The position numbers are program-made. 35,570 bases of DNA. Source: Escherichia coli. Its GTDB lineage: Bacteria; Pseudomonadota; Gammaproteobacteria; Enterobacterales; Enterobacteriaceae. This document shows, piece after piece, positions 32,301-35,300 of this stretch; within the stretch, counting starts at the first letter, position 1; each line of letters begins with the position of its first letter. Location of the stretch: the NCBI RefSeq assembly GCF_003334385.1, contig NZ_QOWN01000045.1; one strand, given 5' to 3'.

Positions 32301-35300
32301 ATTATAAAGCGGGCAATGCGCGAGTGATTGTGGAATGGCGCGGCTGGCGTATTTTGCCGCTGGTGTGCTACGACTTACGTTTTCCTGTGTGGTCGCGCAA
32401 TCTCAACGATTATGACCTCGCCCTGTACGTCGCCAACTGGCCTGCTCCGCGCTCTCTGCACTGGCAGGCATTGCTGACGGCCCGCGCGATTGAGAATCAG
32501 GCGTATGTGGCGGGATGCAATCGCGTCGGCAGCGATGGCAACGGCTGCCATTATCGCGGTGACAGCCGGGTGATTAATCCGCAAGGAGAGATTATCGCTA
32601 CTGCCGACGCGCATCAGGCAACGCGCATTGATGCGGAGCTGTCGATGGCAGCATTGCGGGAATATAGAGAAAAGTTTCCGGCATGGCAGGATGCGGATGA
32701 GTTTAGGTTGTGGTGAGTGGGGGTTGTGTTTAAGGACGGGGAGAGTCGGGGTATTACTACGAAAGCCCGCTCCCCGCAAGGACTGACGCCAGGTAGTTTC
32801 TGTCCATGGCTGCTTTTCGCATCTTACGTCTTAACCCTGCCTTGAATACCTTCTCATTCGTCAAAATATTAATAGCAATGTGCCGTATCCCTGAAAATAA
32901 TTCTGCTGCGTTTCCTCTTCTTATTTTGTAGTCGTCTTCATTCATTACCACGTCCAGACGCCTGTGCAGCTTATTCTCCACGTGCCAGTGGTTTCGGATT
33001 GCTGTGGCGAACTTCTCTGCGGTTAAATCAGCAGAACTGATATAATATCTGACCGTCATTTCGAGCTCTTTCTTTTGTTCTGCTATTATGGACCGAAAGG
33101 AGACTGCCACGCATAATTTCTTCAGCCCTTTCCATTCAAACGTGAAATCAATAAGTTCATCAGGGACATCGCAAACAATATGAAGACGGATTTCTTCTCT
33201 GCCGTGACTCTTTTCACTAATTGCGTAACTGTCATGCTCTGGATTATTTAATTCTTTCAGCGGAAATTTTTCCTCGAAGGCTTTATTTAGCCGCCCCTGG
33301 TTTCCTTTTACCGCGAATAAATAATCACCTCCCTGTTTTTGTATCTTCTCTGCAATATCTTTCTGGCAACCCATCGCATCAGTTGTGATGATTTTTCCTT
33401 TAATATCCAGCATGTTAAGAAGTTCAGGGATAGCTGTAATCTCATTGGATTTCTCATCCGTCCTGATCTGTCCGATGACCAGACTGTGCATTGTTGAGAA
33501 CGCACTAATGACATGAATCGCTCCCTTGCGGCGACTCTTGTCATAAGAATGCCGGAGTGTTTTTCCATCAATTGCGATGACGTCTTTATCATCTGAAGTA
33601 TGGCAATCTCGCATCCAGTTAATAAAGCACTCGTGAAATTTTGAAGGACTGATACAGGATACAACTCTGGCGATGGTATCGTGAACAGGAATACCATTTT
33701 CAAAATCACCATATTGTTTTAAAAAATCGAGATGTGTTTCCCCAAAATCCTCTATATCTTCCCAGCCTTCTGCACCAGAAATAACGGCACAAATAGTCAA
33801 CAGTAGAATATCCGATAATTTATGTTCCACTTTCCAGGCTTGTCTGTAATCGGGGATAATAGAAATATGTTCCATCAATTTTTTAAGTTCCATTTTGTTC
33901 TCCTTAATTATGTAAGGAGTATTTGATCATGTATAAGCAATAAAAAACAGCTTCAGGTAATGAGGAATATCTCAATTTTTAAACATAAAATGCGAATTAT
34001 TTAGTACAAAAAATCAGCGTTACGTGATCTTTCCCTGCCCCTGCGCTCACTACCATGGCTCTTTACCACAGCAGCCGGGGTTGTTTGGGACCGACTTCCG
34101 ACAGCAGATCCCGGTGGGCCTGCCACCATCTCTTCACAAGCTTATGCTTATTACATGCAAAACGTCCCGTTTTGCATCTTTGTGCCTACGGCACACCGGT
34201 GATCTTTCCCTGATGAGGGATATATTAACTATTGAACATTAGCGCGAATTATTTAGTGCAAAAAATCAGCATCACGTGATGCTTTTCCTGCTATTAATAA
34301 CCTCCTCTATTTAACTATATTTTTCATTGATGCAATTCGTAGATTTGAAGAAGTTCAACTGCCACATTTTTATTTTTACTATCGCAATTTTTATACCATA
34401 CCCATGCTTCCGTATTTTTTACTTTTTTTAAATCATCCATAATAAAATCCCCACCAAAAACAGTAAAATACAATATTTCCTCATTAAAAATAAAACTCAC
34501 TGCCCCCCCCTCTTTTATTTTAATTTCCGCTTCATTTGTGTTCAAATCAATTTTTTTAATTACTCCATGTAAGTTGGGTTTTGATAGTTTTTCTACGCCA
34601 CCATCAGGAGCGGGTAATATACATCGTTTAAGAACTTTAGCATTTGCACATCCAATAACCCAAATTAGAATGCACACTCCCATGTTAATCGCATTAACGT
34701 GTCTTAAAACGTTCATATCTAATTCTCTCTCCAGGATGCGAATACATCCAACTTGTCACTTTCTTACACAACTCATCTACATCTTCATTCTGTGCACGGG
34801 TACATCCCATAGTTGGTTTCCAGCCTTGTCGAGGAGCATAAGGATCGCGCAACGATGATCCCCCACCATGTAGCCATCTTGCTCTAGTATCTGTAGTATA
34901 GATCTTCGTTGTGCCATATGCTGCCGATATTCCTGATTCATTTGTCTCACAACCAACGACTTCACCTGTATATGGATCACCAGCACCACGTTGAGAACGA
35001 CGATCAATTCTATTGCTACTATCAAAAGTCATTGAATCACCTGTTTCAGGATCATAATAAATAGTCACTCCTCCAGTCATATCAGTAAGAACAAGAGGAG
35101 TTTCAGCACCTGCCCGGTCTGGAGCGGGAGGCCCATATACACTTATAACTCGTTCTAACCCCAGTGGATCAGTGTAACGTATTGGTACCAGTGGATACGT
35201 GTATAGATTTATTCCCCCCTTCAACCCTATCGGATCCTGGGTGATATACCGCCCCTGCAACGGATCGTAGTACCGGTGACGGTTGTAATACAGTCCCGAC

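Follow-up and report, generated by a model that had tools for sequence, protein, structure and literature searches.

An H-repeat with an intact transposase frame at the yafV edge of the Escherichia coli T6SS-1/Rhs island is most likely an immobile relic

Introduction

ISAs1 of Aeromonas salmonicida, the type element of its insertion sequence (IS) family, is known to transpose. The H-repeats of Escherichia coli differ from it in this respect, as no movement has been shown for them, and the genome paper of E. coli W records that H-repeat transposition has not been observed (PMC3032704). Two copies in K-12, yhhI at RhsB and ydcC at RhsE, are 1,291 bp long with an ORF of 378 aa, and both sit just downstream of an Rhs tip and its immunity cassette. 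In the E. coli W paper, a table also gives the Rhs locus b0215-b0221 as filled in W, with nothing there in K-12, B and Crooks (PMC3032704), and according to the genome paper of EAEC 042 the T6SS island at aspV is widespread (PMC2808357). That the Rhs locus is missing from K-12 is therefore already known, since it is listed in published genome papers. H-repeats also receive group II introns: the Rhs insertion sequence (ISEc1-5) is reported to be a homing target of E.c.I2 and E.c.I9, and a 159-bp fragment named E.c.I9-tr2 has been catalogued in REL606 (242510-242668) and in BL21 (Leclercq & Cordaux 2012; PMC3522654).

Here we describe an H-repeat in a contig stretch of 35,570 nucleotides from E. 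coli (NZ_QOWN01000045.1), which we refer to as the window. Its transposase belongs to the same family as that of ISAs1 by HMM. The original prediction, made from the sequence, held that the transposase gene is intact where K-12 carries only fragments, and that the element may still be mobile.

Results

A complete H-repeat lies between yafV and an Rhs tip

Alignment to the K-12 copies shows directly that the element beside yafV is complete (Table 1). It is exactly 1,291 bp long with a single ORF, the length of the K-12 RhsB copy, and it is 96.8% identical over its length to both the RhsB (yhhI) and RhsE (ydcC) copies, with nucleotide identity of ~97% for the 378-aa ORF and the same left repeat. 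The unit shared with these two copies starts in the alignment inside the transposase stop codon and ends at 34037-34040.

The ORF proved to be uninterrupted, as had been predicted: there are no frameshifts or internal stops across its 378 codons in the ORF list of the window, and no frameshift had been missed. The NCBIfam ISAs1 transposase model NF033564 (cut-off 70 bits) matches it with 406.6 bits over profile positions 1-314 of 314, and the ORF contains the Pfam domains DDE_Tnp_1_assoc and DDE_Tnp_1. All three residues of the DDE catalytic triad (D109, D172 and E306) are in place, with 57-59 of the 59 relatives agreeing at each position. In the leader, promoter-like sites occur no more often than in shuffled sequence.

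The flanking genes are those that had been named, yafV on one side and an Rhs toxin/immunity pair on the other; the ORF does not, though, sit "directly" between them, as 30 bp separate yafV from the element and 286 bp (34038-34323) separate the element from the immunity gene. yafV is annotated under that name in K-12 and in strain NDM6. The immunity ORF and the Rhs end both lie upstream of the transposase gene on the same strand. The presumed immunity protein has a lipobox-like sequence at its N-terminus, is annotated as a hypothetical protein in relatives, and returned no family match in a profile search. The Rhs end matches NCBIfam RHS_core at positions 1126-1261 and Rhs_assc_core with 82.9 bits, while in Pfam it matches RHS together with a weak YkuD match (E=2.3e-4). 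The window stops within this rhs gene at 35570; the close relative NDM6 has the T6SS structural genes (tss, hcp, vgrG), which other strains have lost or carry in interrupted form. The locus keeps a more complete Rhs tip than K-12, in line with the original prediction, which had also called it aspV-proximal; it lies instead at the yafV end of the island, ~33 kb from aspV.

Table 1 Features of the yafV-side H-repeat and its surroundings in the window.
Feature	Position	Strand	Basis or remark
yafV (2-oxoglutaramate amidase), chromosomal flank at the right side of the element	31946..32716	plus	NCBIfam PRK10438, 546.7 bits
Complete 1,291-bp H-repeat (ISEc1-type, ISAs1-family IS)	32747..34037	minus	Alignment to K-12 copies, mapped termini
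Right inverted repeat, degenerate	32747..32761	minus	Comparison with canonical copies
Transposase ORF, 378 aa, ATG to TAG	32757..33893	minus	ORF list; D109, D172 and E306 present
Codon 311 of the transposase, Arg for family-invariant Trp (W311R)	32961..32963	minus	Alignment of 59 relatives
K-12 deletion breakpoint, 5-bp microhomology GTTCT	33033..33037		Alignment; nothing past 33037 in K-12
Gene-conversion patch	33063..33180	minus	Five clustered differences from near-identical copies of the locus
Left inverted repeat, intact, CAGGGAAAGATCACG	34023..34037	minus	Comparison of H-repeat copies
Group II intron E.c.I9 (class D), first 159 nt	34038..34196	minus	Rfam RF01999; ATCC 8739 alignment
16-nt left-end stub of an earlier resident H-repeat, CAGGGAAAGATCACCG	34197..34212	minus	Served as intron 5' exon
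79-nt 5' remnant of a third, diverged H-repeat	34213..34291	minus	Alignment to 33960-34038
130-aa ORF downstream of the Rhs tip, presumed immunity protein	34324..34716	minus	ORF list
Rhs core protein C-terminus and toxin tip	34694..35570	minus	NCBIfam; gene continues past the window end

The right inverted repeat has decayed

The two ends of the element are in different states. Its left end reads CAGGGAAAGATCA, and the left inverted repeat is intact. The right repeat beside yafV reads CGGGGTATTACTACG in place of the canonical CAGGGCAAGATTACG, so that 5 of the 15 terminal bases differ and the CA at the very end has become CG; the decayed right end as a sequence is CGGGGTATTACTACGAAAGC. The right repeat matches the left at 7 of 13 positions here, compared with 11 of 13 in canonical copies. 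The canonical form (...CGTA ATCTT(G/T)CCCTG or its complement) is found in five copies at four other sites, namely K-12 RhsB, K-12 RhsE, O157 at pptA, EcPF15 and SWYHX138, and the K-12 RhsB and RhsE copies end in ...ATCTTGCCCTG, where the window copy has the decayed repeat.

We also considered that the right repeat had been deleted and that the sequence past the stop codon is an unrelated flank. This was rejected, as other lineages grade away from the canonical repeat at the same locus, with the intermediate forms CGGGGTAAGACTACG and CGGGG-AAGACTACG; because of this graded series, the sequence is a decayed repeat and not a foreign flank. A search for a target-site duplication, which the original prediction had proposed as a check, found none at either candidate left end paired with the right end. 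None was found at K-12 RhsB, K-12 RhsE or EcPF15 either, so the absence has no discriminating value.

An invariant residue beside the catalytic glutamate is substituted

The transposase itself departs from its family at two positions. Position 311 is Trp in 59 of 59 full-length relatives, which share 66-96% identity and come from several genera, and is Arg here. It lies five residues past the catalytic E306 in the motif HW-x-V/I-E-N-x-L-H-W-x-L-D, so that the invariant residues of this motif are not all kept in the window copy. Close to it, position 322 is Tyr (C322Y), where all relatives have Cys or Ser. A sequence search of the PDB for the structural context of W311 returned no relative.

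R311 and Y322 are both common to the copies of the window, K-12, B and ST167, while the K-12 RhsB and RhsE copies have W311 and C322. The yafV-locus copy of strain 2013C-4282, whose gene is frameshifted, retains the ancestral residues W311 and C322 at this same locus; W311R and C322Y therefore postdate the insertion.

The window copy has also exchanged sequence with a paralogue. Its five differences from the nearest copies of the yafV locus, which are clustered (Table 1), all match alleles of ydcC, the paralogue at the RhsE locus. H-repeat copies therefore exchange sequence by recombination, which can hold frames open without transposition.

K-12 carries the scar of a single deletion

Alignment of K-12 with the window gives its breakpoint directly. 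The two match at 99.98% from fadE to 33037, where the alignment stops, leaving K-12 with 291 bp of the element (window 32747-33037); K-12 is thus not identical at this locus, in agreement with the original prediction. Over these 291 bp K-12 yafF is orthologous to the window copy, with 100% identity, the same yafV junction, the degenerate right repeat and R311, and the difference lies in everything past 33037. Measured on the locus sequence of NDM6, a close complete genome of ST167, the K-12 gap spans 2272-33588, or ~31 kb. Between aspV and yafV, NDM6 has a complete T6SS-1 cluster together with Hcp and VgrG, an Rhs gene of 4.2 kb with its immunity gene, and the H-repeat.

The aspV-yafV interval of K-12 contains yafT, ykfM and the pseudogenes yafU and yafF. 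All four had been put forward as degraded remnants corresponding to the intact gene. They are indeed present, and yafF, which comprises the C-terminal 62 codons of the transposase, is such a remnant; it is, however, the only H-repeat remnant among them. The same ~31-kb deletion truncated an unrelated island gene of 304 aa, and yafU is its remaining tail; ykfM and yafT are intact genes of the island edge, found in T6SS-positive strains too. We take yafF to be the "H-rpt min 5" fragment of the Rhs literature of the 1990s. One deletion of ~31 kb fused the interior of the transposase gene to the interior of the island gene now seen as yafU. Lost with it were three quarters of the element, the Rhs gene with its immunity gene, and the T6SS genes, and it is because of this single fusion that K-12 shows mere fragments. 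E. coli B lost its island by a different event, an IS1-bounded deletion running from ykfM into the immunity gene, which left the transposase gene intact.

The junction with yafV is widespread

We counted the 121-bp yafV/H-repeat junction, at a coverage of at least 80%, among 5,426 complete E. coli genomes, and found it in at least 2,945, in some lineages at just 90-93% identity. The full arrangement with the same immunity gene occurs in 848 genomes and the same Rhs tip in 902. The deletion junction of K-12 is present in 371, of which the two that were sampled are laboratory strains, and set against at least 2,945 genomes with the junction, this makes the window the common ancestral state and K-12 the exception. 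The H-repeat at yafV is an old, vertically inherited insertion carried by about half of E. coli, and as a resident element it marks the edge, on the yafV side, of the T6SS-1/Rhs island that lies between aspV and yafV.

A truncated group II intron and two H-repeat stubs adjoin the left end

The 286 bp between the element and the immunity gene contain an intron fragment and two H-repeat left-end stubs. Rfam model RF01999, which describes domains D1-D4 of a group II intron, gives a full-length match on the minus strand from 34127 to 34007 with 81.8 bits, where the gathering score is 36. The terminal 31 nt of the match (34007-34037) were rejected as intron: the intron proper stops at 34038, and what the model picks up beyond it is a similar-looking hairpin that belongs to the H-repeat end. 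The reference for the intron was the full-length E.c.I9 of ATCC 8739 (NC_010468, 2411599-2413485), which lies 15 nt inside an H-repeat left end; stub and intron piece together (34214-34038, 177 nt) are 97.7% identical to it. Only nt 1-159 of 1,887 are present in the window, and the ribozyme core (domains V and VI) and the reverse transcriptase gene are absent. The piece is a dead fragment and not an intron. It corresponds to E.c.I9-tr2 at the same locus, and E. coli B is identical to the window over the 175 bp of stub and intron. The two differ in their surroundings: the IS1-bounded deletion of E. coli B took away the Rhs gene and most of its island, whereas the Rhs tip is still present in the window.

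Read along the minus strand, the order is the 16-nt stub (34212-34197), intron nt 1-159 (34196-34038) and then the 1,291-bp element, beginning at its own first base. The 79-nt remnant that lies beyond the stub is 81% identical to 33960-34038 in a gapped alignment of 80 columns. Unlike E.c.I9-tr2 and the window, strain 2013C-4282 still has a full-length intron with ltrA at the yafV locus, flanked as ...GATCACG, intron, TAACGCTG..., and from these flanks it follows that the inner left end of the window is an intron-free E.c.I9 homing site. The pptA locus of O157 has the same layout, with the intron broken off at nt 193 and an additional 13-nt stub, and so does EcPF15, with the break near nt 97.

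The blunt junction between intron nt 159 and the first base of the element suggests that at least the left part of the H-repeat once arrived by a transposase-type event. Intron nt 153-170 resemble the left end of the H-repeat at CAGGG, and a crossover there was tested as a simple explanation of this junction; it was rejected, since the join is blunt and neither copy of CAGGG has been lost. The row of stubs may be a fossil record of repeated, end-precise H-repeat insertions into a resident left end or into its E.c.I9 intron, a reading that we find possible, if somewhat doubtful. Each insertion would then have been followed by recombination between the newcomer and the resident H-repeat. A chimera test, in which differences were binned along the element, gave a mosaic pattern, and we therefore offer this sequence of insertion and recombination tentatively.

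Discussion

The yafV-side H-repeat is most likely an immobile relic, because its right inverted repeat has decayed and an invariant residue beside the catalytic glutamate has been substituted. Judged from the sequence, the change in the right repeat and W311R together would be expected to abolish transposition. Transposases can tolerate some divergence of their inverted repeats, which counts against an immobile copy. The frame may have stayed open by chance, or with the help of gene conversion from paralogous copies.

A rather unlikely alternative is that the copy itself is immobile and its protein is still made, acting in trans on H-repeats with good ends or having some function for the host or for Rhs, such as providing a homology anchor for the exchange of Rhs tip and immunity cassettes. 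Although the right end has decayed, the frame has stayed open in several lineages, among them those of the window, B and ST167, which speaks for this alternative; W311R and C322Y, however, point to relaxed rather than maintained constraint, and elsewhere the same yafV-locus copy decays independently through a frameshift, truncation, internal deletions and IS1-bounded deletions. The anchor role draws on gene conversion between copies and on the many loci where an H-repeat directly follows an Rhs tip and immunity cassette, yet such an anchor requires DNA similarity alone and no open frame.

That the element is a still-active autonomous IS, moved by its intact transposase acting on its own two ends, is very improbable: the open 378-aa frame, the DDE triad, the perfect left repeat, the canonical 1,291 bp and the blunt, end-precise left-end junctions that record past movement of the family at several loci speak for it, and against it stand the degenerate right repeat with its terminal CA gone, W311R at an invariant residue, the identical junction in at least 2,945 genomes, the missing target-site duplication (missing at the other copies inspected too) and the lack of any reported H-repeat transposition (PMC3032704). 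We thus find no support for the suggestion of continued mobility, against which the degenerate repeat, the substituted residue and the old shared insertion all speak. The immobile relic is our preferred reading, and it carries a general caution that an uninterrupted transposase frame does not make a mobile element; here, one end repeat and one invariant residue have been lost while the frame stayed open.

For E. coli, the yafF/yafU/yafT region of K-12 is the scar of a single ~31-kb deletion, through which most of an H-repeat was lost along with the Rhs gene and T6SS-1; at its yafV edge, the strain of the window has the common arrangement, in which nothing was deleted. Beyond such bookkeeping the significance is slight. 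Were the tentative account of the stub row true, the row would be natural evidence of H-repeat transposition with a preference for the element's own left-end region, and today's copy would be a chimera of a newcomer's left part and the decayed right end of an old resident. The stub array is in any case a small and possibly useful clue to how H-repeats and E.c.I9 have interacted over time.

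An intron fragment beside the yafV-locus H-repeat

Next to the H-repeat lies the 5' end of the group II intron E.c.I9, published as E.c.I9-tr2 (PMC3522654), and the 16-nt stub that precedes it is the left end of an earlier H-repeat. The stub and fragment occur together in 2,564 of 5,426 genomes, mostly as a single copy per genome, and an ISAs1 gene directly follows the fragment in all five loci inspected. In strain 2013C-4282, the yafV locus carries a full-length intron with a frameshifted ISAs1 gene downstream, and this arrangement is likely the ancestral state of the fragment and stub in the window. 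The intron breakpoint differs by locus, falling at nt 193 in O157:H7 and at about nt 97 in EcPF15, and the O157:H7 locus contains an additional tandem left-end stub of 13 nt.

A third, diverged H-repeat is represented by a left-end remnant between the 16-nt stub and the immunity gene; within it is a terminator-like hairpin with a T-run (34283-34268).

Coordinates of features in the window and at comparison loci
Feature	Location	Strand	Remark
Integrase-like (tyrosine-recombinase) ORF	window 8787-9950		
tRNA-Thr(CGU)	window 9965-10040		adjoins integrase-like ORF
naRNA4 (REP-type repeat)	window 23855-23932	minus	Rfam match above gathering score
naRNA4 (REP-type repeat)	window 24597-24674	minus	Rfam match above gathering score
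naRNA4 (REP-type repeat)	window 27926-28003	minus	Rfam match above gathering score
16-nt stub and 159-nt 5' fragment of E.c.I9	window 34038-34212	minus	
H-repeat left-end remnant, 79 nt	window 34213-34291	minus	third, diverged copy
130-aa ORF	window 34324-34716	minus	downstream of Rhs tip
Rhs toxin tip	window 34694-35566	minus	
Full-length E.c.I9 with ltrA, 2013C-4282	L010 (NZ_CP027579.1 2451716-2458835)		same yafV locus as window
Stub, intron 5' piece, complete H-repeat, O157:H7	L006 5988-6230		pptA locus
Stub, intron 5' piece, complete H-repeat, EcPF15	L007 5001-5175		

Gene conversion and variation at the island edge

The ISAs1 gene of the window differs from all near-identical copies of the yafV-locus H-repeat by five substitutions clustered at 33063-33180. 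All five are the alleles of ydcC, the RhsE-locus paralogue, which indicates a short gene-conversion tract between H-repeat copies.

The same edge varies among strains. In E. coli B (B-DolR 236497-248671), the loss of the T6SS and Rhs island took a route unlike that of K-12: an IS1-bounded deletion running from ykfM into the immunity gene, which left the ISAs1 ORF intact. SWYHX138 differs from the window on the yafV side, as about 400 bp containing an 87-aa ORF (L013, local positions 3563-3959) separate yafV from a canonical H-repeat right end.

Elsewhere in the window, the integrase-like ORF adjoining tRNA-Thr(CGU) suggests that the left 10 kb is an island inserted at thrW, the site that CP4-6 occupies in K-12. 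All three naRNA4 matches fall in intergenic backbone regions.

The Rhs toxin tip and its putative immunity protein

Beyond its DPLGL motif, the Rhs tip gives a weak match to YkuD, an L,D-transpeptidase catalytic domain (E = 2.3e-4), that includes an HGGG...GC motif, and the 130-aa ORF begins with a lipobox-like N-terminus (VIGC). Together, these features hint that the toxin targets the cell wall in the periplasm, with a lipoprotein as its putative immunity partner.
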